Positions 4,936-41,335 of a stretch of DNA of 64,000 nt are shown here, piece after piece. The position numbers and the translations under genes are program-made. This stretch comes from Asterionella formosa (lineage: Eukaryota), in NCBI GenBank assembly GCA_002256025.1, contig NKIB01011728.1:1-64000 (forward strand). Direction: 5' to 3'. The notes beneath the pieces were generated by a model. The model had not been told where the DNA came from, did not search any database, and saw only the letters and a program-made list of their open reading frames with translations. The stretch's first letter is position 1, and each line of letters starts with the position of its first letter.

Positions 4936-6001
4936 GTAGCTGGTCCTGGTAATCCGCGAGTTGATTCGAAGAATGACCCATTTTGCAATTTCGCAGGATG
5001 CCTTCGTTTAGGGTGACAATTTATTCTTTATTTGTGTCGTGCTTTGTACACACTCCCCGAGTAATGAAAAAATGCGATTCATTTTTTATGTGCGTATGAA
5101 AGTGCACATCGCCTACCGGCCACGGTACCAGGGACAGGCAGTCTACCCAAACAAACCTTAGTGACTGTGGGAACCTGGTACTATTGTGTTAAGAAACCAG
5201 AGGTTGATGTATGTTGGCCTACCGGTAGTATGTTCATTCACCAAAACGCTAGCAACTCTCTTTTCTTCGATATTTGCCTTGCTAAATGCCGATCACCATG
5301 CCACTCATTCATTCTTACTTTTCTCTTGTTGTCATTGCGTTGTCTACTTCTTTGACTGGTGCCACCATTCTTATTGTTCATATGATGAGTGGAAATGTCA
5401 AAGAGAAGCTGAAATCCCAAGCGAAATTGCTTGTTCTGACATGCTTAACATTTGTCAGTGCCTATACCCCCTGCATCCATAACTATGCAAATTGCCAATA
5501 CTATTAAGAATCAATTCTCAGTTGATAAATGACTTGTTCACATCATTTGCTTAAATTAATCATTGTATTGTACTAGTCATTATAGTATTGTACTGTAGCT
5601 AGTACTGTAAAGTGTCAAATCTGTTTGTATCATCGTCATTTTGAATTGTGAACCTCTGAATTACATGAAAAATGGAGATGTCAGCAACTTCAATTTTCGT
5701 TGTCAAAATTAGTGCAATGGCAATCATTCTTTGATGACTGTTTTGCCTTTGTCATGTTTGAAACTATATGTACCAAATAGGAAAGCGTCATTCTTATTTT
5801 TAGGTAGTAAGATATTCACCATTTTCGTCATGGTCAAGATTGAAAGGTTGAGACAACATGAAGAAGGATTCTCCAGCTGATCACAATGATTACACTCTAG
5901 TGTTTTATATATAAAAGGATCGCGTGTTCTCAGCTAAATATTTATATATCAGCTAGTACAAGGGCTACCACGGGCACCCTTAGCATGATTCTAGCCATAT
6001 A

Positions 6002-6366
6002 AAAAAGATAGTATATTTTATAGCCCATTCGTACTCCCCGATTTCTAGACAAATATTTCATTGTGCTACCTGCCAACAAGACCTGTGTTTCCCTAGTTTT
6101 GTTTGCATAGGTGAGTCCCCAACCACCTTTCATGAAAGGTGATCATCTTAGCTGCATCGTTAGGGGAAACTCCAACCGCCTAGGAAGGCGGCACAAGATG
6201 CATGAAGGGAAGGGGGCAACCCACTATTTCTTGCGCGCCAGGCAAGACCGTGTGGGACGGTAAGGAGTGTGGGAGTCAAACCCATCAATTGGTTCTCAAA
6301 AAAAACGGGAGTCGAACCTCACAACCTCAGATCAAAGGCAACATGCAAAACCACGAAGCCATTCCC
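6002..6366 (-). mobile_element. tRNA-derived SINE, family 1, copy A
   Basis: Homologous over ~350 bp to 40589-40963 (inverted); A-box-like TGGCTTCGTGG and B-box GGTTCGACTCC in the head; 16-bp flanking direct repeat TGATTCTAGCCATATA (5986-6001) / TGATCCCAGCCATATA (6367-6382). Confidence 0.8.
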
Positions 6367-6994
6367 TGATCCCAGCCATATATATATACCATTACTTTTC
6401 AAGTTGCAGTCATCTTGCTAAAATGGAAAATTTGATGTAGGACAGGCACTTCATTTCTTCATACTACATAGAAAACTTCATCAATTCTCTCATTGAAACC
6501 ATCTGTATCACCTCCCAATGTGTTTGGAGGCAAATGCACCAATTAGCTGTCTCTCAATAAACCCGACATGACAACAATCCTTGACATCCTGTCTCCCAAC
6601 AAATAAGACTGCGATATCAGTCTCCTCTCTATCAGTCACCATGTAATCAAAATGATAACTTTCTCAAATTCAATGATTCTGCCTGGCACAAGATCATTGC
6701 GTCAACAGACATGGTGGATGTCACACAAATGGCAATTATTGCTGGCCTTGAGCCCAAGAATACTTGCCAATATATTTTCATTTCGATTTTTTTTGTTGCC
6801 AAATTTTCTTTTTGCAAGGCATTTTTACTCTTGTTTGTTGCAGGTGTAGTCAGCCGATCTTGATTATTGCATGCCACTGTATGTAGAACAAAATTGCTGT
6901 GCTGGCTGGCTAGCTAAATACAAGTTAATTCAATATCCCGTCTAAGCGATCCACAAGTATCGCTATTTAGTGTTGCTAACGTTCTCGTAAATTC

Positions 6995-7072
6995 ACTAAT
7001 CTAACTGATGTACCTGTTGCCTGCATCGTCTTGCATAGAAAATGCATGTTACTCCTACAGAGGGCTTCTTAA
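6995..7072 (+). repeat. ~78-bp dispersed repeat, copy 1
   Basis: Diverged direct copy at 41336-41412 (actaatcta.ctgatg...catagaaaatgcat...ctacaga.ggcttcttaa). Confidence 0.75.
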
Positions 7073-9159
7073 GCCTGCAGCCCCGGCTAAACCATAGCTT
7101 CGAGGGAAGCATCGCTAGGGTTGCTGGGGTTGTAAAATTGGCATGGAACAAAGCGTTTGTTTCTGTGAATTCCCATGATTCAAGTGTCCGTTTTAATTTT
7201 TAAATTGAATAGCAATCAGCGCCAGATCGATAGAGTTCCCTTTCAAGCAAACAAAAAAGAGTATTTACAGGTTTTGTATTATATCGTCATCGGTGCGTGT
7301 AGATTTTTAATAATCCACGCCAAAACACATATATTAATCAGGATATGCCGATATGTATGATCATGGATCTTGTTCAAACAAGCAAAAGAAATGATATTTC
7401 ATGTTAACATTGAATCAACATTGCTGTATGTAGATACAATATTTCTCTGCACACAAAGGGACATGTTTAAATGAAAAAGTGTTAGGCCTAACACTTCTTT
7501 CATTGATAATAAGAATGATAGTTGATATGCTTCATGCATCCATTTGTCAACAACCACATAAATTCGATTTTCTCGATCAATTTATGCCCGATTTTACTTC
7601 AGAAATTTGCGGTCGATAGCAAACATAACCAAAATAGATCAAGTCTAGCACTTAAAAATTGATATAAAATCATGATTCATTCCGAAGCTGTTTTGTTGAT
7701 CATTAAGGCTGGATATTACTTGCATCATGTATTATGTCGCGATATTTCTCGAGATCAATTTCGTTTCATTTTTATCAATCAATTAAGGGCCAATTTCACT
7801 CAAACAATTTATAAGTATTGTCGATAGTTTAAAATAGTGCTCAAAGAATGTTTGTTAAGGGCAGGTCTTAAAAGAGATACAAAATTTTTAAATCTGTATC
7901 TCACACATCCGGGTGTTATGTTGCTTCCAGCAGCACAATTTTTGTTGATCCGAAATGTGTATCTGCTGGCTGCTGTATATCGCTGCAGATAGAGCATTGC
8001 TCAAGCGACGCTAATTTTATAAATTTATTTTATGTCATCTAAGTAAAAAATAGCAAACGCACCATTTTTATATCCAACGGCAACAACAGAAAGGAATTTT
8101 GGTTGGAGGGATCACCAGTAGATATCATTATTCGAACACATGTAGTTATGGTATGATTCAGTATTTCTTGCAACATTTACGAGTTGCGCTTCTTGTTGTT
8201 GCTACTTTTCATACATAGAGAAACTGGATGGGAAAAATGATGGCTTTCTCGCTTTAATTAGGAATGGATAGATACGCCTTAGCCGCAACCAAAATGAGAG
8301 GTTATTTAAGTTATTTGAGCATCTACACTTCCTCAATAAAAACTGAATTTCAATTTAGCTTTCCTGTTCCAAATCTTTTTATGAAAAGCAAGCCATTACT
8401 CATTGTTCAGATGTTTCATGTTGAACAACTCCACAATAGAGTAGTAACACGGTGGGTCAACGCAATAGCCAGTTACACGCATGTGCGCGTTTCAAAGTCA
8501 TTTGCTCACTCTAAATGAGACTCGGCGGGCAGTGAGGACGATGATGGGCGGTGCGGGCTTCATCAGTTCTAGTCATGATGACGTGATTTTCGTTGATTGC
8601 GGTGAGACTACCACAGACAAGGAAGATATGGAAGTCTCAATCGAGAGGACTCAACTGTTAGTCAAACTACTAGCACCGGCAGCACGTCGCATTCTTCAGT
8701 AGATAATACCAGTCAACCAAACTCATAATTAGTGAATGTATCTGAAGCCCAACAAAAGTTTTTGGTAGAAAAGAATTTCGAAAGCACTGGTGTTCAATCT
8801 GTTGCGCCTCGTCGAGTAAGTGAGCAAACCTCCCACTCAAGGCCAAGACCCAAATCTTCATCGATTAAATATTGATTCGTCCATTACTCGAAAACAGGCA
8901 CCAAAAAGAATCGAAAGTGTCCATGACATGTCCAAGGAGTGAAACACTTGGCGATCTTCCAGTCGTGGTGACAAAGGCAAGGCAATTCCTGTGCGTGAAA
9001 GTTCTACCGATACACAAGCTTCTACCAACAAGACAACTAAAATGAGCTATGAATCCAGAGGATTCTGAGAATTGCATTTTAGATATAACGACCGCCCCAT
9101 CACTGTCACTGTAGATGCTTCTGGAATCACACAATAATTAGCAAGCAACAACAAGAGAA

Positions 9160-9400
9160 CTGGCTGGGTATTTCGTCTACACCTAGCCTGATGGACAACA
9201 ATACACTGCCTGGAGATTGGTTGGATAGAAAATTCACGGCCAAAGTACATATACTTGGCCTAATTGAGGTCCTCTTTTTGCCAGTTCATACAAGAATGGA
9301 CTAAAGTATGGAACTGTCATTTTGAGTGGCCAGATGGCTACAAATATGATGGTGAATTCAATCTTGGGAGGCATTATGGGAAGGGTTCGTCTGCAAATAA
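9160..9400 (+). pseudogene. Decayed MORN-repeat coding fragment
   Basis: Broken MORN-like units: YT*PDGQQY, HGQSTYTWPN*, WPDGYKYDGEFNLGRHYGKG, with stops. Confidence 0.55.
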
Positions 9401-11851
9401 AAAGAATCGTACGCACAAGATCAGGGGTATTGTACAAAAACTGGCACAGAATTTTTCTGTGCATGATATGCATTTTGTTATTTGAGTGATAGGTACATAA
9501 CATACATATGAATATTTGATTAGCATGTTTATACTTACAAAGTTTGATCACAATGTTCCAATATTGATCAATATTGACTCATATCGATAACCACAAGTAA
9601 TCATACCAATACAGTAATTCAGTAACTACAACTCAATTTGAAATCATCACTTCCCTTCGAAATTCAATTGCTCTTCTCATGATGATGAATTACTAATTGT
9701 ATTTATAAGACCATCATCGATTTACGTTAGCTACATCCTATATTGTGTATTCGTTCATCTTATAGCCATATTAATACCATCGTATTTCTATGAAAGTATC
9801 TGTCCAAAATATGTGGAAACAGACAGTCATTTAATTCCTAAATTTAGAATTGTTTCTATCTAACTATATAAAGAGTTGTAAGACACCGTCTCAATCCTGT
9901 TCACTCTCTTGTATGCTGCTTCCCTGCTACCCCGCCCGTTTCTGACACAACTGTAACTGCCAATTGTCTATGGCCTTTCCCTTTTACTCCTCCGATTCTG
10001 AAGGATAAACTGATGTTGCTGATAGCGGCGGGTTGCCTCTCCCCATTCCGTTGTTGTACTCCGTTTCAGAGCTTTCCTTCATTATTAGTATTCATGTTAA
10101 TGTTGTAACAATTGCCAAGCAAATACTTGTTAGTCATTTTAGTCTTAATAGTATGCAACAACTTGCAGTTCCATTCTATTTTCACTTACCATGAATAGAT
10201 GTATTCCGTCACACAGGTTTCTCAACACAATGTGTCAATCGATCCATTTTGATTGTTCACAGTATTAACTAATGGGAAGTAAATATGTGTTAGGCTTGTT
10301 TAGTAGTTTTTATTACAACAGGCAGTTCCAATCATTATGGTATGGTCACTTACCGCAACAATGATACAAATACATGTTCAGTTTCCGTATTCCTCAATAA
10401 ATTGTGGTCATGTTGATGTTTAGAACTTCCATATACTCTTTGTATAAAATTACCCTGACATATGTAAAAGGATGTGTTACTTTCTGTTCCAACAGGTGAT
10501 TCTTGTGAGCATTGATCCAACGACAGCACTTACCGCAACCGTCATTTCTTCACATTGAATTTGTCCCCACAAGTATACATATTCAGGTAAGCAATGAATC
10601 ACTTGAAGAGAAAGCACGCATTTAGTTACTGTCAAGCCAACAATATAATATTCTGACATATTCCATTGACTTACCATGGCTTTCGGCCTTCTGTTCAGCG
10701 CCATTCCGTATTGTGTTTCCAATGAAGTTGCAAGGTATCGATAAATTGATCTGTTGCGGTAATAAACTGTTTATCTGTGTGTTGTTTATTCATTTCATGT
10801 AGTGTACATGAGAATGAAGATGTACCCACAAGTCCCAAAAAATTGAGCCAACCATACATGTATTTGTATGTTTGAATATTTCAAACACCCTTGTACTATC
10901 GTACACATAGATCTGACTATCATCTATATTACCATACTTAATTTGATTTTATGCAATGTTGTAAGATTTCATTTGTTTTGAACTTAGTAGGCTGTAAAAA
11001 TTTCAGTACGTGATATTACCAATATTACTACCCATACCAAATTTGATTATATCCAATGCTGTATGAGTTCATGATTTACCACAACCTAATCTAGAGTATA
11101 AATTTAGGTTTTACGACAATTCGGTACAGAGTAATAGTTAATAAAAATATTAAGCCCCATCATGGACGTGACATATACGTGAAAAAGGATTAGGGTTAGA
11201 ATGCGAACTATGAATACTGCGGTTGTACAAAATTTGATGTAAAAATGATCTTAGTACGATTAGTTGTTTAGTATGATCATAACTCTAGTTTTTGTATTAT
11301 GGTGGTGTACAGTAATACATTTTACAACATGCAATGTTGTAAGTAGTAGAGCCCTATTTTCTATCATGTTCACAAGTAAGGACTGCTAGGAGTAAGTACC
11401 GGTAGTAAGAAGGTACCGGTAGTTATGAACAACTGCGTACATCTTGTTGAAGGACATGATATGATGATGTACATACCTGGTAGGATGATCTTTTTCCAGT
11501 TGTAAACATACATGAATATACAACATCTTTCTATCCATAAGTGTGTAAGTAGCTACCGGTACGTTACTTGTCCATCGCAAAGGTACTTGTAAGAGCATGT
11601 TTGATCTCCCATTTTCCTTAGTTTTAGCAACACTTAATCATATGCTCCTTGTCCTTCCTCGCCACACCTATTATTCAATGCCTCCAAAACCAGTGCGAGA
11701 TGCTGTAAATATTATATCGTGAAGTGGCTCGAAGCCATTTTTAACTGGTACCTGGTACCAGGTACTAACAATAGCTACCGGTAAGAAGTAAATAGCACCC
11801 TGGTGGTATCTATGTACCGGTATATACCGGTAGGACTTGCAACAAAAATAT

Positions 11852-11899
11852 TGCTGAAGGCAATACACGCCCGAGGTGGTCTCTTGCCTGCGAGTATAC
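11852..11899 (-). repeat. 48-bp GC-rich repeat, near-identical inverted copy of 31396-31443
   Basis: 47/48 identity by manual alignment. Confidence 0.9.
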
Positions 11900-12403
11900 C
11901 GGTACATAGAGCGGGAACAATTGCTTTAGCACCGGTATGCACTTCATTTTCAGTCCCTGTACAGTGCTCTGCCTATGTAAATGATAGTGATATACGTTCG
12001 TAGAAACGACGCTGCTCTGTAACATGTTCATTTTTGTCAATACAATGGTAAATTGCAATCTGCAGTGATTCTAGGCATGTATATTTCAATTATGTTATCT
12101 GATGGTCGTACTTTAAATGAGTAGGGTCGAGCAGACGCCGCGAGAGAAATACTCTGGTACGACTCAAGGCATTGACGAGTTGGCTGAGCGGTGATACCGA
12201 TTTACCGATTAGCCCCTTTTTTTAGTCTGTTTGCATTCTGTATGTACCAGGAAGGATGTTAAGGATACCAGGTGCAGCAATATATTTGTCGGCATTAGCG
12301 TTGATGCTAGTAAGTCATTTATGGCTATGTGGCTGTTTGTCATATTTTTTCATTGGAAGACATCATTCATTAATTCCAACAGCCCATTTTTTTCTTTCCT
12401 GTA

Positions 12404-14383
12404 ATGAAACTTGTTGGCTTGTGTGCCCTTCTGTTTCTCCGAGCAGGGGCGCTCGAAGTGACAGAAGACATAGAAGGATTCTTTGACGGAGTGCGCAAAG
12501 AAAATCCTAACGGAATGGTTGAAGAGACTAGAATTGTCGGGGGATCTCAAGCAGCTCGTTCGAGGTACCCATACTTTACAAGGCTTGATAACAACGGACA
12601 ACCTCATTGCGGAGGAGTCTTCATACACAATGATATAATATTGACTGCTGCACATTGTGCGTCGAACCAATTGTCGGCTGTGATCAACGCCTTCGTGGAA
12701 ACAGGATACACCTACTCAGGTCAGATTAACCGTTCTGTTCAACGTGTCATTGTGCATCCACAATATAATGCACAGGGACAATCAAACGAATTCGCCATCA
12801 TCAAACTTAGCAAACCAGTTTATTCGATCAAGCCAATACTTCTGAATGGTGATTCGCTCCAGCCTGGCACTGGAGATACTGTCACTGTGGTAGGCGTCGG
12901 TGCTAGTTATGAAGGCGGTCCTACCACCGTTGTGCTCAACCAAGTTTCTGTACAAGTCACAAGCACAAACGTATGCAACGCTGATTACAGTGGACTTATC
13001 ACAAATTCAATGTTTTGTGCAGGTTCACAGTTTGGAGGAAAAGATTCATGTCAGGGCGACTCAGGTGGCCCAGTCATTCAGATTAAGAACGGAAATGATA
13101 TCCTCGTTGGTGTGGTCAGCTGGGGTATAGGGTGTGCTAGAGCCAAAAAACCAGGAGTATATGCGAAAGTGAGCTCAGCCAAAAGCTGGATTGATTCCAC
13201 TGTTTGCTCAATTACATCAGTACCCAAACTTGGCTGCCCAGGTGTCTCTGCTGCATCGATGCCTCTTCCTTCACCTAGTCGTGCACCTGTTCGTGCAGCG
13301 ATTCCAGCTACTAGTACTTGCAGCGATGATGATGAAAGTGTATTTTACCTATCCTTCTTTGGCAGCAAGACATGTAGCTGGCTCCGCCAACGACCGGCGC
13401 TTCAGCGTTCTGTGTGTCGACAAGATACCATTGTGTACAATATTTGCGCGGCGACGTGTAAAAAGTGCACACGCACCCGTGCTGTTGATTTAAGTGAAGG
13501 CATTATTATTAATGGAATTTCTCGTGACTGTCTCTATCTCTCACAACACCCAATGGTCCGTGATAGGGAGTGTCGTCTGGGGCGTCCCGCCTATGATGTT
13601 TGTCGAGAGACTTGCAGTTCTTTTAATACTGGTGGCTCTCTTCGTCCGTCAGATAAATTGTCTGTGGCCAAGGGCAAGAATTTTTGCGACGACTCTGTAT
13701 CCACAACCTTTTTTGTTCAAGATATCGGCCAAGATCAAAACTGTGCGTGGCTGGCGGCGCGATCTGAATACATTGATACTTACTGCGTTGCAGGGCACCC
13801 CTCTGGAGCTAGAGACGCGTGTCCTGAGACATGTGGCAAGTGCAACGATACATGCGTGGATTCCACCGCAAAATTTGATATCGATGGTGTTCGACGAAAC
13901 TGCTTTTGGTTAAGCCTTCGAGTGGAAGTGCAGGCCAAGGTATGCTATCCAGAATATGAGGCGTGGATACATTGCCGCAAGACTTGCGAGAACTGCCCTG
14001 CACTCAAATCAGCTGAACGACTATCGAACTCTAGCGGGAGTATACACAGTGGCAAATGCAACGATGACAGATTCGGCACTTTTTTCATCAACTCACAGCT
14101 TCGTGAAGAAAAGTGCGTTTGGTTAGCAGCTCAACCAGAGTGGCAAGCCATCTTATGTGTAGAGGGACACCCTTCTGATGCTCGAAACGTTTGTGCTGAA
14201 ACATGTGGGAAGTGCATTGACAATTGCGTCGATACTGCTGACAAGTTTGATATTGACGGGATTATTCGTGACTGCCGTTGGCTGGTGTTGTTGAAGCCTG
14301 AAATGCAAGACATGTATTGCTCAGCTGATAATGGTGCCAAAGTAGCGTGCCCTAAAATTTGCAACAGCTGTACAACACGTTAA
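12404..14383 (+). CDS. Secreted trypsin-family (S1A) serine protease with C-terminal Cys-rich (ShK-like) repeats
   Basis: Signal peptide, R|IVGG activation site, LTAAHC, DSCQGDSGGP, VSWGIGC; about seven C..TC..C-terminated repeats after a Pro-rich linker. Confidence 0.92.
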   Translation: MKLVGLCALLFLRAGALEVTEDIEGFFDGVRKENPNGMVEETRIVGGSQAARSRYPYFTRLDNNGQPHCGGVFIHNDIILTAAHCASNQLSAVINAFVETGYTYSGQINRSVQRVIVHPQYNAQGQSNEFAIIKLSKPVYSIKPILLNGDSLQPGTGDTVTVVGVGASYEGGPTTVVLNQVSVQVTSTNVCNADYSGLITNSMFCAGSQFGGKDSCQGDSGGPVIQIKNGNDILVGVVSWGIGCARAKKPGVYAKVSSAKSWIDSTVCSITSVPKLGCPGVSAASMPLPSPSRAPVRAAIPATSTCSDDDESVFYLSFFGSKTCSWLRQRPALQRSVCRQDTIVYNICAATCKKCTRTRAVDLSEGIIINGISRDCLYLSQHPMVRDRECRLGRPAYDVCRETCSSFNTGGSLRPSDKLSVAKGKNFCDDSVSTTFFVQDIGQDQNCAWLAARSEYIDTYCVAGHPSGARDACPETCGKCNDTCVDSTAKFDIDGVRRNCFWLSLRVEVQAKVCYPEYEAWIHCRKTCENCPALKSAERLSNSSGSIHSGKCNDDRFGTFFINSQLREEKCVWLAAQPEWQAILCVEGHPSDARNVCAETCGKCIDNCVDTADKFDIDGIIRDCRWLVLLKPEMQDMYCSADNGAKVACPKICNSCTTR

Positions 14384-15151
14384 TACTTTTTGAACAGGTT
14401 CAGGCATGTTCAAAGAAGAAATGAGGGAAGGTTGCAGTACTGTTGAAACTATTTAAAGAATGTCGAGTGGCAATTAATGCATATATCTAAATGAATACCA
14501 TTGTATTCACAAAGAATCAAGAAGGATTGCGCATAGTAAGGGAGGAGTCACCAGGGGAAACACACACCTAGATACTACTTAGTTGCCAACTCTAGAAAAC
14601 TAAATGTTTATAAGAATGTATATACATGTACCAGTTTGACTACCGGGTATATATTTATGGTCCTCTAGTATATCGTAGTTCTTCCGAATGCCGTCCACAG
14701 GAGCGTATACAACATGGAATTCTGGATTTTAGACTACATGGAGTACCAGGTGCGTACTACCACCCATTGTTCCAAGGGTGGAGTGAATATAAGCATGCTA
14801 AACGAGCTCAAGGTAAACATGATGGATTACTATGCATGTGTGTATGTACATGCCATCTTTGCTATCTTGATGCATGATGTTCGCTCTACAGGTTTACTTC
14901 GGAGCGCGAATAAAAGAGGAGTGTGACTTTCCTAACATACATGCCAGTACCCGGTAGTAATTCTTCTGACATCATCATCCTATGATACTGTAGATACTAC
15001 GCACGTTTTGAATTTGTTACTGACTGGATGACGATGAAACAGAAACTTGGTGAATCGGAAGAAAAACATTAACAGCGTCACTCCTATAAAATGAGAAATC
15101 ATCTCTTCGCAGCATAGATACCCTGGTAGATTCAATCGCAAAAGCGAAGAC

Positions 15152-28842: not shown

Positions 28843-30984
28843 AGTTTCGATGGGTTAATCGAAATACAAGAATAAAAACAACTAAGTGATCGAGCCAAAG
28901 TTCAAAAGAGCTATCTGGCCAACTCCTTCAGTAGAAGGTTGGAAGATGGCTGAGTTCTTGACAACGAAGGAAACGGCCTGATATAGAAGCAAGTTAGCCC
29001 CATCACTGTCAGTCCTCCCTCACACGGCAAAGGAGTTCCCTAATGTGTCATCTTTTTGTACCTTGGTACTTTGTACCTGGTATCTGGTACGGAGTACCGG
29101 GTAGTATTGTATCATGAATCATGATACCAGGTAATCTGGTACCTGGTGCCGCATGATTATATTTTTCCACACTCCTCGCTCCTCGGCAAGATTGTTTACA
29201 AGATGATTCGCCTGACGATGAGCGAGGATGCATACGGCGACCAATTTCACAGATGCTATTGTTAGGGTTCAAAGGATTTACTCGAACAGAGAAGCATGGA
29301 CACTTGCTTGCCATGGCAATTGTTCCAGCTCCAGCTATCGTCTTGCCATTCTGGTACTTCTAAGTAATTATTAGGTTCTAAGTAATTTCTTAAGTAATGT
29401 TTATTTAAGGGCAATATGGGGGACATCGAATTTTTCGGCATCAAAATTGCCAATTTGAGCATGACAACCAGAATAACGGTAATATGCATAGAGATGGTAC
29501 AACAAGCGTAAAACACACGAGAATGATTGTAACATGCAACATCAATGAAAATTGAACAAGATGTTAAGCAACCAAACTATGAAATGCGATGTAATAAGTA
29601 GCATCAAATGCGAAAAAGAAAAAATTGTTTTGGGTTAGAAATGAAGTAAAAAATAATAAGAGTTTCAATGGAGACATATGCATTGTGAATCATTGTAGTA
29701 CTTACACAGGCAACATTGACTTTCCATCACCACACAATCAAAGACCGAAAGAAGAAGAAAAAAGCTGAACCCAATCTTGACCTGCATTGTTATGTAGCGT
29801 AAATGGTCTAGTTGCTGCAACCATGCACATTGCTGTAGTAGCCTGACACCAGTAGCAGCATTTCCGCCACAGTCATTCCTCTCCGCCGCCCACCAAACAA
29901 GCAACCCTGATCATTCCATTCTGAGCAAGCATGATCGCCACGCTGCTCCAGCACTATTGACTCCCTCTAGCTGAGTATTCATGTAGCTTATGATATGAAC
30001 TCGTAATAGAAATGTAGCAAAGCGCATTAGTACAAGAAAAGCATTGCTTGGCGGCCATATTGACATCATTTGCAATAACTATACAAATCAACAAATATGA
30101 TCAACAATGACACAATACCACATCTTCAATGAGTAGTCATTGATAAATGCATTGGTTCTTATGTAGATAAATACAATCAAAACAAAACGACAGTGCAGAA
30201 CGACAAACAACGATGGAAGCGATCAAAACGGACCACGGAAGCTATCAAATCGGAAAGTTGATAAATATGATCTACAATCCACATTCAGTGTTTCACTGTT
30301 GTACTTTCCGATCCGCTTCAACTAGCATAACAAGCAGCAGATGATGGGATCAAAGAAAGACAAATGTTGCCTATTGCAAGCCCGAATAGAGCAAAGGCAG
30401 GCAAGATAGAGTGAGAACAATAATTGTGAGGACAAAATCAGGCATACGGTATGTAAAATCAATGAATATGTGAACGATATAATTTAACATACAGGTCTTG
30501 TAAAAGTAAAACCGAGTCTACAGAGATGGTATTATAACGTGTTCAAAGTAAGCATTAAAGTATAGCTTAAACCATTTATGGTTGTTTTTAGTAGGACATA
30601 CGTATGTAGACCAGATGACTGCCAGTGGTACTGGTAGAATATCCGTTAAGCATCATCACATGCATGACTGGAGCGAAAACTTGCCACCAACATCAGATGT
30701 ATCAATATCATTGTTCATCCAACGAAATATGGACAATGTGACTACATGAATCCCTCGAGAATACAAGCAATCCAACAACCAACTGCATCCATTAGGCAAT
30801 GAATTGCTACTGGCATCATCGCGGAACTGATTTCGCTTCAAACCGGTCATGATGGACAATGATTGGAATGGTCAAAGGTGAATTGCTGGAGTCCACTTTT
30901 CAGGAGACAAACAAAAACGAGGTGAATTCTAGATATAAATGATCAAATCTGATTGGTATATAAAATGGTTTCCTTAAGTAGACC

Positions 30985-31445
30985 CCTTGCCGATTTCGGC
31001 AATCCCAGGGCTGGAAAACCGAGGGGCAATTGGCGTCTGTTGTCTTGCGAAAAAGCGAACATGTGAAATATTCAAAATTTATTTTAATGATGGGCAATAT
31101 CGGACCTTTGGCAATTTTCGAGGTGAAGATAGGAAATATAACAACTTTATTTATATGATGGGCAATAGTAGGCTAAAATTGACATTTATGCTTTGTATGT
31201 GGGCAGTAGGTAAGCGAATGAGACGACAATAGCTAGAGCCGGAATTGCCTCAACAAATACCCTTCTCGACGGCTACTTGTCTTCTCGCATTCATGTGTAC
31301 TCAGCTGGGATGGCACTCGTAGGGTGACCTCCCCGCAGCGCCGGGGGCGCCACTCGTGCGGTCAACCTACTCGCGCCACCCAGCCTCGAACACATGTATA
31401 TTCGCAGGCAAGAGACCACCTCGGGCGTGTATTGCCTTCAGCAGG
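30985..31445. repeat. Left arm of diverged inverted repeat (probable transposon terminus) with GC-rich hairpin
   Basis: Reverse complement aligns patchily with 33995-34462 (ccggcgctgcg, aggcaattc, attgccc..cat...aaa units, ggattgcc.aaat.gg). Confidence 0.6.
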
Positions 31446-32053
31446 TACGTACATCCTACTCTGGGCGATGGCTTGCTTATTTCTTATGAGGAGCGATGAG
31501 CGAGGTACGGTCCAATTGCTGCTGTAGGATTCTACGCACAAGAAAAAAATCAAAAAAGTCGAGCGAGGGTTCACCTTTTTGTCGTGTGTTCTATAGAACA
31601 AGCAAACGAACCGGTACTTCTATGAAGAACAAATGAGAATACAACGTATATTGGTACACCGATATGTTGTCTCATGTCACTCAAAGCCACGAGGGATAGT
31701 GTGGTAGTGCTACGCGTCATTACCCCCCTCCCATCTCAAGAAAAAAAATGAGAAATCATTGGTGTTTGTAGTGATTTCCCAATTGAAGGTGGGATGGGTA
31801 ATAAAGATATAATAGGATACAAAGGTCGATTAATCATATTTGTTGTTAAGATATTTCTAGCCTCCGAGTGTGATGATGTCGTCCGTTGATATCATCAGCA
31901 TCGAATAAGGGTTGAGCAGCTGCAACTGTGTATTGGATTGATTTGAGAATACATTGAAGGGCCAGAAAGGTCTATTGTATATATAGCATGTTATAGCGAT
32001 GTTTGATGTATGAGTCGCAATAATCGGGAATGCCGATAATCCATAATGCATCA

Positions 32054-33201
32054 TCAACACGCAGCCGTCATGGCTGAGAAGTTGACGGTTGACTTGGAGA
32101 GCATCATCAAAAGGTTTGCGGCGTCATCGTCATTATCTGAAAGACTTGAGTTGTCACTAACGGCATGGTCATCGGATGCAGACCAAGACATAGGACTAGC
32201 AAGTGGACGAAGAGCTGAAGGCTGGCTTTGCTCAGGGCTGCAGTGGACGACCAAAGGAATTTGATTGGGTACAATGCCCAATTCCAAATCCTGTTGTAAT
32301 AAGTGGCGCATATGCTCGAGTTGAAGAATTTTGCCACTAACTCCGATTTCATCCTCAACTGTGCTGACTGCCAGCTCTTTGCGGACCCTACGTCCTTCCG
32401 AGGTCTTGGCAGATTCGCATGGCTCCACTCTCTTCAGCTGTAGGACAGTCGTGATATCTGCAGTACCATTCTCGGCAAGGTCCCGATTCACCCATAGAGC
32501 AGTAGTTGTAGATCCCGTCGTGCTGAAAGAACGAACATGGACGAAACCGTAGTAATTCAGTTGACGCCGAAAGGTCTTGAAGTTCCTTGTGTTAAAATAC
32601 CTGGGGAGAATTGTTTTTGCAAACGCATCAGTAGAATGGAGAACGAGCAGTCCTCGGCGCCACTCCACAATGCCAGAGTTTTGTTCTTTTTGTAGCATGT
32701 CATGCAGGCGGCGCACGAACTTGTTGAGACGCGTTCCTGGTGATTGCGAGGAGCGTCTGGGCTTTGAACTAGGTGAACTACATTCGTTGATGCCTGAGAG
32801 TCGCAAAATAGGATACGTGAGTTTTTGCCAGTTTTGCGCATCATGAAAAGAACGCAATAATTTAGGGTTCTCTCTTTCAGTCTTCGTGTTTGAAAATGCA
32901 TTCCGATATCAGCGACTACTCGCCAGTACCTGGACGTACCATCGTTGGGAATCACCAAACTTGCGCTTGTCATCGATATCATTGATTCATTAGCGATAAC
33001 CAATGGGCATGTGCTCACTGTAGAGACTACTGATGAAGGAACATCCCCTCGTGGCGTCGAGTTTGGTGAAACTAGAGCCATTGCAGTGGGTGCTGAGTTC
33101 AGAGGCAGGGTCAAGGCTTGCAAAGCCGACATCTCAGGCGCTTCACATATAGTGAATGCAGAAGTGTTGGGATGAATATAGTGGGTCATTGCCATTGCCA
33201 T
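32054..33201 (-). CDS. Heat shock factor (HSF)-type transcription factor (intron 32794-32939)
   Basis: KFVRRLHDML...IVEW...FAKTILPRYFNTRNFKTFRRQLNYYGF; a phase-1 GTACGT...CAG intron joins the two ORFs. Confidence 0.9.
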
Positions 33202-33994
33202 GATTGAATTAATGGGGCTTCACCTGGCGAGGGAAAAGTTATGAGAGACGAGAACCCAGATAAACATGTCATATTCCAAAACTATCTATCTAGTGTCTGC
33301 GATCAAATGGCCATGATTGCCAGGACACTTACGAAGCTTATTCGGATATATAATGCAACAATTCGATCAGAGTAGCTCAAAGGTGAATGCTTCGAGGCTA
33401 TCTTTGTATGACGACGTTGTGTTTTCGCCTTCCTAAAATAAAAGTAGGAAAGAAGAAAACGTGGACGAGGTGAGCAAATCTTGAGGATTGATTTGCGTCG
33501 TTTCTTCCTTTGTTACTGCCTTTCGTAGAATCTACATCGGGGAAAGACACCTGGTTTTGGCTCGTGAGGCACTCAGTGAAGTCACTGAAAGAGGAGTGGT
33601 GGACAGGCGCACCTGTTCTCGTTTGTGCAAGTCACGACCCTACATTACCACCCCATAGACACCAGGACTAGTCCGGGAGATTTTGAGCAGATACTTGACG
33701 CTGAGGAGATTTACAGCTGGTGCGAACCTCGGGTGTCAATAAAAAGGCAAAAGTAACTGCAAGTTGTGACACCTCGAACGTTGGTTGGCCCGAGTTTCCA
33801 CACCAGCAGGAGATGCATGATCAGACATACGTACCGGTACTGTACCACCTGTATTTAGGTTGACGAAACAATGCGGAGTGGGCCAATGCTGATTGGTGGA
33901 TGTTTGCCACAGCTAGCATGCTGTTAAGGATTCTCAGTGCAAACAATATGAAATTTTTACTATGACAGCTATATATACATTTATTTACTGAACA

Positions 33995-34462
33995 GGTTAA
34001 GACACGACTGAGGGTGGAGCTAGCATGCCAGTATTTCCGGCGCTGCGACAAGGTCTACCTGGTGCGAGGGCCTCCCCGGCCTTGAGAACAACTGTGCAAG
34101 TAGGCAGACTCCTCCCGAGTACGTAGGGTCTTAACTACCGGTAGGCAATTCACAGCCTGGCTATCGGCGCGCTTTTCACAACCGTATTGCCTTTTCAGTA
34201 ACATTGAAAACATATTTTAGATAGTTTGTATGTTCGTTCCGAAGTGGCCAATTGCCCTTCATCTAAAACATTTTTCGGATATTTAATATGTTCTGTTGTT
34301 GGATTACTCAATTCTGCAATAGTCCTCCATATAAAACATATTTTGCACATTTCCTATGCTCGTCTCTGTTTCTGGATTGCCAAACTAACATCAATACTTC
34401 CAGTAGCCCCTCAATTTGCCTGCTGTTTAACAGAAGGAAATTGGACTGCCAAAATTGGAAGT
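33995..34462. repeat. Right arm of diverged inverted repeat flanking the HSF gene
   Basis: Homology blocks to the reverse complement of 30985-31390. Confidence 0.55.
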
Positions 34463-34740
34463 GAGTAGGATGACCCACAAAATGATGGTTATCTGTCAAG
34501 TGTCAATGGCAATTCCACATTAAAATGCTCCCCATTGTCAAGCTTGTCCAAAACTATACAGACTGTGTTCATTGAAGAAAAAGTACTGATTCATTATCAA
34601 ATAAATAAAGCTGGTTGTTGATGATTCAACTTATTGCGTTCTGCATTGACTCCTATTTCGCAATCATTAGGAAAGGAGCGAGTGATACATAGGTTGATTG
34701 TTGTCATGGTTGAGTTGTTCCTGCCATGGTCTATAATACA

Positions 34741-34993
34741 AAAAAAATTGAAATGTTAATTAAGTTTTATAGTATATTAAAGCTATCCAATAATCGCACT
34801 TGTGCCCCCTTGAATGGAAACAATTAGTACCGGTTTTCCTCGTCTGTATGGTAGTACAACAGGACCTGTCGCTTCATAGTAAGCCTCACCCCCCGGAACC
34901 CTAGGGACTACATAAAAGAAAAAGACAGGTGGAGAATGCAGGAATCGAACCAGCAACCTCATGAGGTGTGCTAACCAGTTTAGCCATTCCCCC
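34741..34993 (-). mobile_element. tRNA-headed SINE-like element, family 2
   Basis: Head GGGGAATGGCTAAACTGGTTAGC...GGTTCGATTCCTGCATTCTCCA folds into a cloverleaf with a truncated anticodon arm; A and B boxes present; ends CTATAAAA plus T-run like family 1. Confidence 0.65.
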
Positions 34994-36787
34994 ATAGTAA
35001 TTACAGTTTGACTGAGAAGCACCAGAGGGATGTCAAGAAATGATGTGTTGCTCTTTTTTCTGTTTGTTCACTGCTGTACATTCAATGGATTGTTGTTTAT
35101 TGCTGTTCATTTGCTTCATCACATTAATTCCTTCCAACAACCACCCCAGCCACTATTTTTCAACTTCCACCAAACTCGATTTTCAAGCAATGGTATGTTT
35201 TATTGATTATTGCGTAGGCTTTTGTTTCTTCAGTTCATGCCTTCCATTCCAGTCATCCAAAGCCGCCATTGCATTTGCTCCTTCCAGCTATAGCCGCATT
35301 AATACTATTGCCTCAAAATCGATTCCCAATGAAATGTTCATTTCCAGTATCATCTGCTGCACTACCACTATTGTCTCTCAAAAAGACCATGCAATCCAAT
35401 GATGCATCCAATGCAATCAACAAGGCTGGTTGATTACCAATTCTTCCAGCCAGCTTATGTTCCTTCCAGCAGGAGGACCAAACCTCGACTTCTACATTTC
35501 ATCCATTCGAGCTTAGTAACATCATGAATTCAAAAGTGGTCTCGTATTGAATAACCAATCATCCCAGTCATCCTTCTCTTTAAAGATCGAGCAAGTTGAA
35601 ATTGAAAACCCATCTGCAGTTGTAGGTCCTAAATTAAAATATTTCTAATCTGTGCAATTTTGTCACCTCTGACGCAAGTGAACCAACTTTTTTGATTGCA
35701 TAATTCCTTGGTCAGCATGATGCTGTGTATCTGTGAATCCATAATCCCCCAGATATGATGATGGGCCAAGAAAAGGAGGTTTTTCGTCATTGTATTAAAA
35801 CCCTTTCTTGTCAATTGCATGTTTATATAAGATCGACCAATTTGTTGGCACTGTTGAAGAGTAAAAGTCGATGCACTTAAGGGATACTCTGCTGGTATAT
35901 CATTGGCATTAAAAAGACATCCTGAGGTAGATTGGCAATCTTTTTAGTCTCAGTGCATGTATTTTTCTTACTCATTCATACAATTCAAGTATCAGTAAAT
36001 GGATTCGAAATTGTCAAGTTGATTGACCAAATTAGTTAACAATTATTGGACGGCAGTGGTTTTGAGGAGCACACGTATTCCTATACAGTTATGAAGGCGA
36101 ATATTGTAGGAGTAGCACAGATTTGAAGGATAGAGGTGAAATTGGTGCTGCAAGAATTGTGGTGCAAATGCCTATGAGAATCAGTTGAGTTTACTAATAG
36201 ATTTAATGTTTCACCCAATTTTGGAGGAGTCCTGATAGTCTAGTATGGAAACATAAATAGACTCTTTAAAGACTGTCTCTTTAAAGACTGTTTTCGTCAT
36301 TGTAGACTCAATCCTGTGGTCATGAGAAGTGCCAGGAGGCACCAGCACAAGAAAGAAAAGCATGGTAGTACAGGATGGACATGTAACTCATCAGCCACTT
36401 TAAATGCTTTTATTAGAGGAATACAATGTTAGTCGATCTATTGATGAATGCCAAAGAATTGGTCATCTCTCTATATCTCATCAGGACTGATGCCATTTGT
36501 TTGCCGCCCTACGCGAGGCTAGATTGAGCAGAAGACTTCACAACAAGGTCTTCGTGAGTCGTCGCTTTATGATGAAGTTCTTGACCAATATTTTAGACTA
36601 CTTGGTAATATATTGTTCCCTCGCCCAGTACTAGAACTGGTACTACTGAGTATATCAAACTTGACTTCATCCTAAATGCCGTGCAATTATCGCATTCTGA
36701 TTAGCGATGGTTTTGAATTAGAATTTGAGACTCCATTGCCCAGTTTCGCATATTATTATGTTTTCGTCATCACAATTGTCTATAATA

Positions 36788-38701
36788 TCAATCAAGAACA
36801 ATTATTCCACCATCCTCAGTTTTTGATTTCTTGGCAACTGGCTCGCTGTTGACAACTCCATTCGATGTGGTCTCCGACTTTCGCTTTGCAGATGCAGCTG
36901 GTTTGACTTCTTCGCCACTGCCCATGTCGAGGATTTCGACATCCTCGTCTTCTGCTGCTGATTGCTCTTCAATGCCCCTTTCATCGGCTATGACTGTAGT
37001 GCCAGGCTTTGGTTTATCACCCCCCACCAAGTACCTTTCTGCGTCTTCATCACTTTCCCCTTCTTCTTGCTCCCATACGTCTTTATGTGTGATGCAAATG
37101 TCGACTTCCAAATCTTGAGAAAAATCTTCAATCCGCACAATGGAGCCGTTCTGAATACCTCCACAGGGCAGTTGGGCAAGAACCTTTACCAAGTTTGGTT
37201 CAAACGCAGCTGTGTCGGCACCTTCTCCTTCTTCATAAATCATGTCACCTTCCAACATCAAAGTTGGTTCTTCAAATCCCAAATCTTTCTTAATGACCTT
37301 TGTCAACAAATCCTGCAAGGTCCATTTTTCAACGTTGAGAGTCAGTGGAATGGTGGCATTGCGGCAGACAAAGCATTTTGGGTTTGGCTGGTCTAGCTTG
37401 CTCGACGAGAGGAAGAATCCAGGACGTCCCATCTTGTTACGCAGGCAATCCACGTATCTGCACACTTCCCCCAGATTGTCTTCTTTCCCTTCAAGCTGTT
37501 GTTGGAGGATGTGAAAAACTTGAAGAACCTGTAGACCTGCAACAATAGCATTGGTAGTTGCAATGGCGGGCACAATATTGCCAGCAATGCCCTTGGCACT
37601 ATAGAACGATTGCAACGGTTCGATCCCAAAAATAAAAGACCGAAGGTTTGATGCAGCAGTTACCAACCGCATGGCAAGTAAATCATCCTTATCAAAGCTA
37701 GGAAGGAGAGTAGCAGGATGGTCATCTGTGTCTATCAAACACGACGCCAATTCGGCAATACAGTCCGCTAGAGACCATACGTCTGTTGTTTTGTAGGAAA
37801 TTGCTTTCATGGGAGATTTTAAAGCAAAACTAGCTTCAATGAGAGCTGCGGACATTGCAGTTGGAACGACCTTAGCAGTCTTGTAACGTTGCATTTGTAA
37901 TTGCTTGGTGATTTCTGTTGCGTAAAGATGAGTCACAACAGCAGAAGCTGCCTTGATAAGGTCCTGTTTGGCTGCATCTTTCTCCAATAGAGAACGATAT
38001 TCCAGTACAGCAGCCATGTAGGTGCTTGGCTCCTCCCCGTCAGGATCTTCGAACAGCATGCTTTCTGTCGCAACACCAAAGAGCAATTTATACAGTTCCT
38101 TCGCCCAAACAATGGTATGAACAGGCATGGAAGGAGTTGATCTAATGGTGCAAATGGGATATACCTTTTGCGTTTCTTGAGTTGCACACTCATAACAAGC
38201 AAGGTTAGAGGCTTTGTCAATAACCTTGACTTGTCCGAGATATCCCGTAGTTCCGGCTTCGACAAGCGGAACTTTGGCAGCCAAACAAAGCCGATTCACT
38301 CGACGCCGTGCAGTTACATTGTCCAATGCATTCAGGACCAAGGCGAATCCAGATACATATTGCACATTGAATTTAGTATTATCGCAAACATTCCCATGAT
38401 ACGGAATGTACTTGGTATTCTCCTTGTCGACTGGAACCATATTTTGAGCGACGGCACATGCCACTTCGCATTTGGACTTGCCTACGTGCTGCGATCGAAA
38501 GAGAAACTGTCGATTGAGATTCGAGACATCAATGGTGTCGAGATCTATAACTTCAACGTGCCGAAAGCCGCTGAGCGCAAGATTCTTGAGGAGTTCACAG
38601 CCAATACCCCCTGAGCCGACCAACAAAACTTTACAAGCTTGAATCTTTTCAAACAAGGCCTTCCCGAGCGTGGTTTCCAGAGAAGAGTAGGTTGCTGTCA
38701 T
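36788..38701 (-). CDS. UBA2: SUMO-activating enzyme subunit 2
   Basis: GSGGIGCELLKNL, DLDTIDVSNLNRQFLF, YPICTIRSTP catalytic Cys, AGNIVPAIATTNAIVAG, CFVC, C-terminal basic NLS; probable start MTATYS at 38701. Confidence 0.95.
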   Translation of the reverse strand: MTATYSSLETTLGKALFEKIQACKVLLVGSGGIGCELLKNLALSGFRHVEVIDLDTIDVSNLNRQFLFRSQHVGKSKCEVACAVAQNMVPVDKENTKYIPYHGNVCDNTKFNVQYVSGFALVLNALDNVTARRRVNRLCLAAKVPLVEAGTTGYLGQVKVIDKASNLACYECATQETQKVYPICTIRSTPSMPVHTIVWAKELYKLLFGVATESMLFEDPDGEEPSTYMAAVLEYRSLLEKDAAKQDLIKAASAVVTHLYATEITKQLQMQRYKTAKVVPTAMSAALIEASFALKSPMKAISYKTTDVWSLADCIAELASCLIDTDDHPATLLPSFDKDDLLAMRLVTAASNLRSFIFGIEPLQSFYSAKGIAGNIVPAIATTNAIVAGLQVLQVFHILQQQLEGKEDNLGEVCRYVDCLRNKMGRPGFFLSSSKLDQPNPKCFVCRNATIPLTLNVEKWTLQDLLTKVIKKDLGFEEPTLMLEGDMIYEEGEGADTAAFEPNLVKVLAQLPCGGIQNGSIVRIEDFSQDLEVDICITHKDVWEQEEGESDEDAERYLVGGDKPKPGTTVIADERGIEEQSAAEDEDVEILDMGSGEEVKPAASAKRKSETTSNGVVNSEPVAKKSKTEDGGIIVLD

Positions 38702-38997
38702 CGCGGCTGCCTCCACACACTGAACAGAAGAGCAAGTTAATGCGGACGAGTGGCCAATGACCACCGTTGGATACACTTTAGCAATTATATATTGATTGAA
38801 GTGTGTCTTTTGTTTCTATATAAAGTTCGTCCATTCTTGTCCTGCAACATGACAGCCGGTAAACATCGTTGGCCGAAGAAATGTCATACATATAAAAGGT
38901 ATTGCTCCTAGTCCGTATCTCGCCGGGCTAACACGGTACTAGAAGGCACTCCCACGCAGAGAGTACCTGGTACCAGTGCCGGTATGTGGTAACGAGA

Positions 38998-39250
38998 ACA
39001 ATTGCGTCAATTCTTAAAATTTCTCTGCGACCAATTTGACTCTTAGATTTTTGCCGGCTCCTAATGGTGTCTTGTGCTTAGTTGCATATCCATGATGCAT
39101 AATGTATATGTTTTAGTATATTTAAAATTGGCACCTTCGTTTCAAACTTTTTTTTTGAGCTTTTTCTATTTTCACTTGTGGCCGGCCATCTCAAGCAAAA
39201 TGCAGATGCATGATGCATGATGCATGATTACCCATTTTTCTTCAAACCAT
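38998..39250 (+). mobile_element. Terminal fragment related to the mariner-like relic at 57725
   Basis: Shares ttgc.tc.at...aaattt...tttgactc, catatccatg and catctcaagcaaaatgca.atgc...cccattttc blocks with 57729-57965. Confidence 0.55.
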
Positions 39251-39280
39251 CTATTCTCTAGATACATACAAAGTAGGATA

Positions 39281-39877
39281 GTAGAAAAAGAAAATTTTAT
39301 AGTACGCTTTTATTGAAACTCGACTCTTATGGAGTTTGTGAAGTTGCCCTGGGGCCCAAGTGGGCCCCAAAGGAATGACGAGTGAGTGAGGGCGAGTCCA
39401 TCGAGGGACTCTTAGGGGTTGCAGTTTGGAGGTAAAACAACCGTAGAGATGGTGAGCAAGGGAAAGGAGCCCATTATGAGGCTCTTAGGGTTTTGGAATC
39501 GTGTCTAGAACAGTGTAGGAAATGGAGAGAAGAGGGGAAGGCCAGCAATCAAGAAATGGAAAGCAAATATGAAAACTGCAAGGCCAAAGTGGGATTTTTC
39601 CAAGAATTGGAATAATCGAATATGAGGAGTGTAGGCTGAGGAATACATGATAAGAGAGCAAGGGTAAAAGGGTCTTGGGAGAAACAACCGTAGAGATAGA
39701 GGCGGAAAGTCACTTTTAGGCGGGGCACAGGGAGCGGCGCTGGCGGAAGGCGCCATGGCGGAGCGAAGAGGAGTCAGCAGGAGCAGCGTAGAAGCGGCCG
39801 TAGGCCGAGTATTATAATAATGCAATTGATATTGGGCAGGTAACCCGGAAATTTTAAAGTTGCATTGTTGAAAAAGA
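39281..39877 (-). mobile_element. 597-bp retroposed insertion, probable 5'-truncated non-LTR element 3' end
   Basis: Exact 17-bp flanking direct repeat ACATACAAAGTAGGATA (39264-39280, 39878-39894); minus-strand 3' end AATAAAAGCGTACTATAAAATTTTCTTTTTCTAC; GGGGCCCA-CT-TGGGCCCC hairpin near the 3' end. Confidence 0.75.
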
Positions 39878-40588
39878 ACATACAAAGTAGGATATATAAA
39901 ACAGCAGAACAATAGTAACTTGCCTTTGATCCTCATGGAATGTGCAACTGTGGAAGTGGGCAATGGTGGAAAGGGAAAAAATGATAGCATGCTTGTTTTG
40001 ATGATTGGACCCATTATATGTCTGGTGGTATGGTCCATGTAAATACAACAACCATAGAATGTATAAGAAACATCATGTGCTCTATTCATGTTGCAATTAC
40101 CGGTATCATAGCTCCTGCAAATATTTGAGTGGCTGGCCAATGTAATACAGCATTTGGCAATATGTACACCATGTAAACAACCATGAATATGTATATATAC
40201 ATATATATGTTAAATTGGTTTCGAATATTAAATTTAGATGCTAATAATTTAATAAGTGATTATGAGTATATACTTACATCTAAATAACTAATAAAAACGC
40301 ATTTTTTGAATAAGCTGACCTAATGTAGAAAAATGGTATGTTTTCTCCGTGATCTATGCTAAAAATAAGCTGCTCGGCACCGGAATTGCTGCAAATTTAT
40401 GTAATTGTTTTTCCCAGAGGGAGTACCTAAGGTATTCTCTCTGTTCAACTTTGCATATTAGTAGCACTCAAACTTGAGGTGATTGCCTCTCATGAATTGC
40501 AAGCTCTGATAACTCTCCTGCTAACAGCCCTTACTATTATTTAAATAATTATTCCGAACTTGATGGTGAATATAATATGTACTAAAGA

Positions 40589-40963
40589 GGGAATAGCTTA
40601 GTGGTTTAGCATGTTGCCTTTGATCTGAGGTTGAAAGGTTCGATTCCCGTAATTTTTTAGAAGCAATTCTTGGGTTCGACTCCCGCACTCCTTGCTGTCC
40701 CACACGGTCTTACCTGGTGTGCAAGAAATAGTGGGTTGCCCCCCCCTATTTGCAGCTTGTGCCGCCTTCCTACTAGGCGGTCGGAGTTTCCCCTAATGCT
40801 GCGGCTAAGATGATCACCTTTCGCGAAAGGTGGTTCTTGGGGAATCACCTATGCTAACAAAACTAGGAAGCACAGGTCTTGTCGGCAGGTAGCACAATGA
40901 AAGACTTGCCTAGAAATAGAGAGTACAAATGGGCTATAAAACAGGCTAAATTTTTAGAATTTT
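40589..40963 (+). mobile_element. tRNA-derived SINE, family 1, copy B
   Basis: A box TAGCTTAGTGG, B boxes GGTTCGATTCC and GGTTCGACTCC; homologous to 6002-6366; flanking TATAATATGT repeat (40571-40580, 40964-40973). Confidence 0.8.
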
Positions 40964-41335
40964 TATAATATGTGTTCTAAGTACTAGTCTAGATTGAGAT
41001 GAACCTTTCCTCGTTTTTTGGCGTGTTTTCGTAGAATTACACCCTATTGACCCTTTGTTGGTCAATAGACCTAAAGGAGGAGGATTTAAAACCGGAACAG
41101 GGACAATACATTGCCAAATAATAGTTTGGCAACCTCGAAAGGGAGGCTGATGAGACCATCAACATGGATGGCCAGCTCATCATAAATCTGGGTGTGCACA
41201 AAACTTAAACTATATTTTTCGACATCAGTAGAACAAATTACTTTTTTGTATGGAAATGCGTGCACCAACAAAAATAAAAAGCCCAAAACAATTCACGACA
41301 TGTATCCCTATTTAGATTTATACTTTGCTATATAT

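Follow-up and report, generated by a model that had tools for sequence, protein, structure and literature searches.

We analysed a 64,000-nucleotide stretch of the Asterionella formosa contig NKIB01011728.1 (GenBank assembly GCA_002256025.1, positions 1 to 64,000 of the forward strand; the whole stretch is called the window below), in which four retroposon-like insertions, three of them resembling short interspersed elements (SINEs), end in the same short sequence. With a G+C content of 43%, the window is eukaryotic DNA dense in genes; its long open reading frames (ORFs), almost without introns, include, by Pfam match, a trypsin, a cytochrome P450, a SUMO-activating enzyme subunit and a Na/Ca exchanger. 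The closest named relatives of the SUMO-activating enzyme ORF (SUMO-E1, 36788-38815, minus strand) come from the diatoms Attheya, Seminavis and Nitzschia (56-58% identity), and metagenome proteins reach up to 79% identity. Because of these diatom relatives, and because the public sequencing runs that contain the stretch are labelled algae, lake-water and freshwater metagenomes, the host is taken to be a freshwater diatom. An earlier note, made from the sequence alone, had placed the insertions, here named E1 to E4, at the positions and strands given in Table 1, each ending in the box CTATAAAA followed by ~15-25 nt with T-runs at the end; direct reading of the window bore this out, with 14-24 T-rich nt after the box. 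E1 and E4 make up family A and E2 represents family B; these three carry heads resembling a transfer RNA (tRNA), and E3 is headless.

Table 1. Insertions, flanking duplications and a related fragment in the window (fractions are matching over compared positions)
Feature	Positions	Strand	Details
E1, full family A copy	6002..6366	-	tRNA-like head, body of ~290 nt, CTATAAAA at 6016-6023 then TATACTATCTTTTT; nhmmer family profile E 2.7e-131
Target-site duplication of E1	5986..6001 (3' copy), 6367-6382 (5' copy)	-	TATATGGCTGGGATCA / TATATGGCTAGAATCA, 14/16
E2, family B copy	34741..34993	-	head 34930-34993, CTATAAAA at 34765-34772, T-rich tail; no clear duplication
E3, non-coding retroposon copy without a head, rich in C+T	39281..39877	-	597 bp; CTATAAAA at 39295-39302 then TTTTCTTTTTCTAC; sits in another repeat
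Target-site duplication of E3	39264..39280 and 39878-39894	+	perfect, 17/17
E4, second family A copy	40589..40963	+	T6 run 40653-40658; CTATAAAA at 40934-40941; contigs diverge before 40588
Duplication core of E4, TATAATATGT	40571-40580 (5' copy), 40964..40973 (3' copy)	+	perfect, 10/10
Degenerate 5'-truncated family B fragment	48256..48338	-	matches E2 positions 149-237, nhmmer E 0.0018; tail box decayed

E1 and E4 lie 34 kb apart on opposite strands and share 86.3% identity over 357-358 nt; their homology runs from exactly GGGAAT into the tail, and their flanks are unrelated. Family A is about 365-390 bp long (E1 365 bp, E4 375 bp) and family B about 253 bp. Logan contigs of the DNA runs X1, X2 and X6 and of the RNA run X12 were mapped onto positions 34500-41200 at 80% likeness; X1 probably represents the source sample, and the other two DNA runs sample the same species in two other studies. 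The 5' end of E2 is fixed at 34993 by 58, 41 and 36 contigs (X1, X2 and X6, respectively) that pass through ...CCATTCCCC and then diverge. At the 5' edge of E4, 45, 41 and 32 contigs of the same runs diverge exactly before 40588, with a flank agreement of 0.42-0.43.

The head of E2 matches the Rfam tRNA model over positions 1 to 71 with 28.3 bits, compared with a gathering score of 29 (E 1.7e-4 on 121 nt); in its predicted cloverleaf the anticodon arm is shortened and the other three arms (acceptor, D and T) are retained. The heads of family A and E2 align at GGGAATGGCT, GGTTAGCA, TGAGGTTG and GGTTCGATTCC, and a family A profile finds the E2 head (nhmmer E 0.012), indicating a shared origin of the heads. 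The heads were compared with the A-box and B-box consensus motifs of RNA polymerase III (pol III) promoters. The B-box consensus GGTTCGANNCC occurs five times in the window versus 0.17 expected, and four of the five occurrences lie in element heads; E4 and one outside copy (L015) match both consensus motifs exactly. According to the available text of SINEBase (PMC3531059), such boxes are an indication, not proof. ARAGORN reported no tRNA in the window, Rfam gave no match in the window at the gathering threshold, and there was no Rfam match in 34600-41100, the part that includes the headless E3. The earlier note had counted three tRNA-like heads and one headless insert; the family A head aligns with that of E2 but fails the tRNA model.

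Flanking direct repeats, also claimed before for E1, E3 and E4, were found as described, and we scored them ungapped against 20,000 random pseudo-insertions of matching lengths in the window. The score of the E1 duplication (10) is equalled by 0.0002 of the pseudo-insertions, and none of the 20,000 reaches that of E3. At E4, 8 nt separate the 5' copy from the start of the element, and by eye this stretch fits the 3' flank only if an indel is allowed; because of this offset the ungapped score is low (4), and the evidence is the perfect 10-mer core. A complete family A copy in a metagenome contig (L021) has its own duplication, TGTAAATATACA / TGTACATATACA (11/12), with a score again equalled by 0.0002 of pseudo-insertions. 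Thus, four of five complete copies (E1, E3, E4 and L021, with E2 the one without) carry a duplication, of 16, 17, 10 and 12 bp, respectively, and all four start with T, as TAT in E1, E3 and E4 and TGT in L021. As a separate observation, the consensus 5' flank of the E4 family, built from 45, 41 and 32 loose ends (X1, X2 and X6), has an A run 24-30 nt before the element, which may be a target-site signal.

The inserts are short, non-coding and AT-flanked, features also compatible with DNA transposons of the miniature inverted-repeat transposable element type or with segmental duplications, and the ends of E4 match weakly in inverted orientation (p 0.033). We regard this alternative as very improbable, since the termini of E1, E2 and E3 pair in inverted orientation no better than shuffles (p 0.49-1.0), the duplications vary in length whereas a transposase would give a fixed length, every SINE copy is polar, running from a head to a T-rich tail, and the flanks differ in hundreds of contigs. 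The elements are polar, interspersed and high-copy, with sharp ends, different flanks, variable duplications and no terminal inverted repeats, which supports the earlier description of them as insertions of retroposon type.

The abundance of the elements was apparent from depth, which we summed over all mapped contigs and which is not a copy number. Single-copy gene depth was about 720-1,000 in X1, about 87 in X2 and about 6.25 in X6. In the two bins of E4 the depth rose to 520-534 thousand, 22.9-33.5 thousand and 1,203-1,655, and in the main bin of E2 to 399,814, 22,404 and 1,292, respectively. Relative to single-copy flanks, the excess in the three DNA runs was roughly 200-700x for E4 and E2 together and 200-450x for E2. 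The two halves of E4 are equal in depth, the pattern expected if a short element is copied whole. A single variant base of E4 (40685) was present in up to 99, 93 and 65 distinct contigs of X1, X2 and X6, and one of E2 (34839) in up to 66, 34 and 33. Among the 11,992 mapped records of X1, 1,317 were at least 99% alike, 3,085 were 95-99%, 5,050 were 90-95% and 2,540 were less than 90% alike. The 5' junctions of E3 and E4 are spanned by contigs of X2 and of X6, and the 3' junctions of E2 and E3 by contigs of X2, showing that these insertions are present in the samples of two other studies; among the joints listed, where X2 and X6 bridge the insertions, no insertion polymorphism was seen.

Copies were also sought outside these runs by means of short seeds. 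An 18-mer from the family A head hit 22 loci in metagenome contigs, four of which (L003, L015, L017 and L021) have extended homology; the other 18 are alike over the seed only and were set aside as chance matches. L021 is a full family A copy with a tail homologous to that of E1. In L017, a 5' part of family A (L017:1-156, minus strand) adjoins the terminal ~40 nt of an element resembling family B on the opposite strand (L017:157-196, plus strand), representing either a nested insertion or two neighbouring insertions in another sample. The same 18-mer found nine loci in prokaryote genome contigs, all bacterial and none with extended homology, and none in viral contigs; likewise, a 23-mer from the E2 head had no match in viral contigs. 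A 19-mer from the family A 3' end gave one locus in viral contigs, which was rejected as a chance match.

Based on the tRNA-like heads, the pile-up of depth with breaks at the element ends, and an outside copy with its own duplication, we conclude that this diatom probably carries true SINE families of tRNA origin, represented by E1/E4 and E2.

Relatives of E2, E3 and E4 also appear in the contigs of RNA run X12, where all of them continue into unlike sequence; such contigs show neither transcript ends nor expression. One of them, 655 nt long and with a depth of 455, includes a sequence related to the body of family B (window 34778-34948) with unlike sequence upstream, and has the box CTATAAGA ~10 nt before its end, in the reverse complement of the loose end at 34778; again, contigs cannot show where a transcript ends.

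E3 differs from the SINEs in composition as well as in its missing head, being 65% C+T. In each of the three DNA runs, one contig at single-copy depth joins 39275 to 39896 with seven other letters between, and therefore lacks E3 and one copy of its duplication to within a base or two. E3 is thus a real multi-copy insertion. The earlier note had seen in it the 3' end of a long interspersed element (LINE) on which two SINE families depend, and the part concerning the SINE families is upheld. The part concerning E3 is not: no reverse transcriptase or endonuclease came to light, and the sequence common to E3 and the SINEs is 8-10 nt long. The earlier model in full, in which E3 is a 5'-truncated copy of an autonomous LINE whose CTATAAAA/T-rich 3' end both SINE families mimic so as to borrow its enzymes, is doubtful in our judgement. 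It accords with the missing pol III head, with the perfect 17-bp duplication and with the position of the box, 14 nt from the end as in E1. It also accords with depth, which falls from the 3' to the 5' part of E3 in all three runs (X1, 120,459 to 24,213 to 5,321; X2, 4,094 to 1,178 to 436; X6, 229 to 80 to 24), as 5'-truncated LINE copies would give. However, the bin of highest depth (39204-39427) also includes low-complexity flank, and a 3' module common to several families fits the gradient equally well.

A single reading frame, open from the 5' end of E3 to 39508, also speaks for this model, but it matches no Pfam family. Because the frame runs 110 codons onward into the flank past the duplication, and E3 is so rich in C+T, base composition probably accounts for it. 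A search of the frame among 1.84 billion proteins gave six matches of 56-204 aa, all short conceptual ORFs and none of the length of a LINE protein, although a 3' region that is wholly untranslated would go unseen in such a search. One of these (P0121) is the same locus in another assembly; two (P0122 and P0126) combine the 3' part of E3 with a different 5' part, and three (P0123-P0125) combine its 5' ~180 nt with a different 3' part. The two parts of E3 thus pair with different partners, which makes E3 a mosaic of modules. The E3 hairpin pattern had no match in metagenome contigs and none in viral contigs. We also considered whether the repeat hosting E3 is an old family A copy and rejected this, the family profile giving a 12-nt match (E 0.58) on the sequence with E3 excised. 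Separately, further unclassified repeats at ~10-30x single-copy depth in the three runs lie at 38980-39203 and 39876-40547, which flank E3, and at 40996-41200 and 35844-36291.

The feature that unites the three families is their 3' end. The box is followed by 14, 24, 14 and 22 nt of T-rich sequence in E1, E2, E3 and E4, respectively, and the elements close in T5-T8, the end of E3 reading TTTTTCTAC. Over both strands of the window (128 kb), CTATAAAA occurs seven times versus 2.87 expected; four of these seven sites are the tail boxes, which lie on the element strand within the last 22-32 nt of the elements, and the remaining three (2581 and 3297 on the minus strand, 15084 on the plus strand) have no T tail. 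The 14-17 nt downstream of the box are homologous among E1, E4 and L021. Estimated from the background rate of the box, its joint occurrence in three families appears unlikely by chance, at ~1e-3 to 1e-5 for the two further families once post hoc choice and AT-rich tails are allowed for.

We nevertheless considered that the box is coincidental, or does not derive from one partner, so that the three families would have been mobilised by different elements. Pairwise local alignments of the last 70 nt between families are marginal (p 0.022-0.19), those of E3 with the SINE tails extending over 8-13 nt only, and E3 has only the box of 8-10 nt in common with the SINE 3' ends. No common hairpin upstream of the box emerged in E1, E2, E3, E4 and L021, the 3' ends of E3 and L021 folding well (z about -3) and those of E1, E4 and E2 no better than shuffles. 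Moreover, CTATAAAA is itself AT-rich within AT-rich tails, and in L021 it has decayed to CGATAAGA. The place of the four tail boxes, the joint chance estimate, the box CTATAAGA at the matching place in the RNA contig with the family B relative, and the initial T of all four scorable duplications argue for a common basis instead, and we consider independent mobilisation unlikely.

Taken together, we think it likely that the window holds two related tRNA-derived SINE families, A and B, and a headless family represented by E3, all inserted by target-primed reverse transcription with the enzymes of an autonomous non-LTR (non-long terminal repeat) element; E3 may be the 3' end of this partner or another passenger. 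The SINEs have the layout of a tRNA-derived head with A-box-like and B-box-like motifs, a body, and the fixed CTATAAAA with a short T-rich 3' end. Such an element would supply the reverse transcriptase and endonuclease by which their RNA is copied into DNA at a nicked target, the T-rich RNA end presumably pairing with the target at the nick. Since a T-rich end and duplications starting with T match the signature of RTE-related SINEs, the partner may tentatively be sought in an RTE-like LINE, a guess more apt to be wrong than right.

T-tailed, RTE-related SINEs are indeed the closest known kind. In the accessible text of Nishiyama & Ohshima 2018 (PMC6007223), these SINEs (plant Au-like SINEs and the AFROSINE and Sauria SINE types) have T-stretch 3' ends and duplications starting with T; about 75 nt of their 3' sequence and a hairpin are common with an RTE-clade LINE, and RTE-related insertions show a T stretch near target position -10, with most duplications 13 bp or less. 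The SINEs of the window resemble them in the tRNA-derived head with A and B boxes, in ending not with poly(A) but with a T stretch, and in the initial T of the duplications (four of four). Unlike them, the families here share only the short box, not ~75 nt and a hairpin from an identified RTE LINE, and they occur in a diatom, whereas those SINEs come from plants and animals. The families also conform to the generic type: a tRNA-derived head, a body without known relatives and a tail form the commonest SINE structure, with 41% of 175 families in the available part of SINEBase (PMC3531059), where a head is assigned if 60 nt or more of it are at least 60% identical to a tRNA species, or else to 5S or 7SL RNA. 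Like such SINEs, the elements are shorter than 1 kb (365, 375 and 253 bp), interspersed and non-tandem, apparently present in ~100 copies or more, and composed of a tRNA-like head, a body of that kind and a simple tail. They depart from the generic type in that the tail is a fixed box with a T-rich stretch, not a variable simple repeat, and in that a conserved T5-T8 run stands right after the head.

Besides the shortness of the common 3' sequence, several results weigh against the interpretation. Searched at E<=10, the E4 head gives no match to the tRNA model, two T-loop motifs alone matching. A T5-T8 run lies directly behind the head in every SINE copy, that is, in six of six family A copies and in E2 (in E1 a T8 run at element positions 62-69, window 6298-6305 on the minus strand; in E2 a T5 run at element position 71), and the sole other run of at least five T in these copies is the 3' end. 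Judged from its sequence, this internal run looks like a pol III terminator and would stop a transcript after ~70 nt, which makes simple pol III transcription of the full element doubtful; full-length SINE copies dominate despite it. Pfam found no reverse transcriptase or endonuclease domain in the 110 ORFs of the window (15 + 95), nor in the 12 ORFs of the metagenome loci L003, L015, L017 and L021, and no partner LINE was found among the window ORFs, the metagenome-locus ORFs or the proteins retrieved with the E3 frame. E2 has no significant flanking duplication, the degraded candidate of the earlier note scoring just 3 in the pseudo-insertion test. At 16 and 17 bp, two of the four duplications are longer than is usual for RTE-related insertions (13 bp or less). 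A T stretch near -10 is not evident either: TTTT occurs at one of four sites (E3), at -7 to -4, the L021 target is merely T-rich, and those of E1 and E4 have no T stretch, in what is a very small sample. Two of the four outside copies are probably chimeric assemblies, since L003 (L003:1-2092) and L015 (L015:1-3127) are low-coverage contigs that bear SINE fragments at their ends and whose remaining genes are of bacterial or phage type (DnaB helicase, glycosyltransferase and others), and L015 terminates in an adapter-like string. Finally, ratios of summed depth cannot be read as copy numbers, and the copies in X1, X2 and X6 do not come from independent genomes, X1 being probably the source sample and the others the same species.

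A more specific model would accommodate both the internal T run and the shared tail. In this model, an undescribed diatom LINE with relaxed, non-poly(A) template choice would recognise nothing more than the short CTATAAAA and the T tail in three families that are otherwise unrelated, and every one of several hundred SINE copies would in addition be a small pol III gene for a tRNA-like RNA of ~70 nt, the full-length template arising by readthrough or from RNA polymerase II. We rate this combination as quite unlikely.

The element type itself is textbook, and the families described here are additional members in a poorly covered lineage. SINEs were long believed absent from most unicellular eukaryotes. 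Oomycetes and diatoms are both stramenopiles, and infSINE and related SINEs have reportedly been described from the oomycete Phytophthora infestans. That SINEs are poorly documented in diatoms, as the earlier note supposed, agrees with the accessible portions of the relevant papers, which give only automated 'putative SINE' calls: 13 copies totalling 1,454 bp in Phaeodactylum tricornutum (PMC5859163), and further calls in Cyclotella cryptica (PMC7466962) and Pleurosigma pacificum (PMC12803021). These calls share the host group and the class label with our families; they are automated classifier output, compared here by description only, and in those portions they come with no heads, tails, duplications, copy numbers in hundreds or partner elements. 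As for potential partners, the parts available to us mention RTE-like non-LTR elements in Thalassiosira pseudonana and Phaeodactylum tricornutum (PMC2806351) and LINE/Ambal for Pleurosigma (PMC12803021). Our literature search, outside which lay subscription journals, supplements, Repbase and Dfam, found no paper joining tRNA-derived SINEs, diatoms and a LINE, and an existing library entry is possible.

With clear heads, tails and duplications and apparent hundreds of copies, the SINE families would offer a solid, analysable case in a major algal group and a handle on the diatom LINE machinery. The presence or absence of their insertions could help to tell apart strains and species of freshwater diatoms, and the insertions, lying between closely spaced genes, may shape promoters and untranslated regions.

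Several other repeats were noticed in the window. A repeat of ~140 nt occurs at 6940-7080 and 41280-41420 (both plus strand; about 78% column identity), near both family A copies; because its geometry relative to these copies is inconsistent, it is regarded as a separate small family. A remnant of a Mutator-like transposase (45782-46560, minus strand) matches PF20700; the match is split over frames, with E 1.4e-18 on 46264-46560 and a weaker part on 45782-46099. Two pairs of inverted repeats lie at 57921-58030 / 58543-58650 (110 nt, 89% identity) and at 11852-11899 / 31396-31443 (48 nt, 98% identity).

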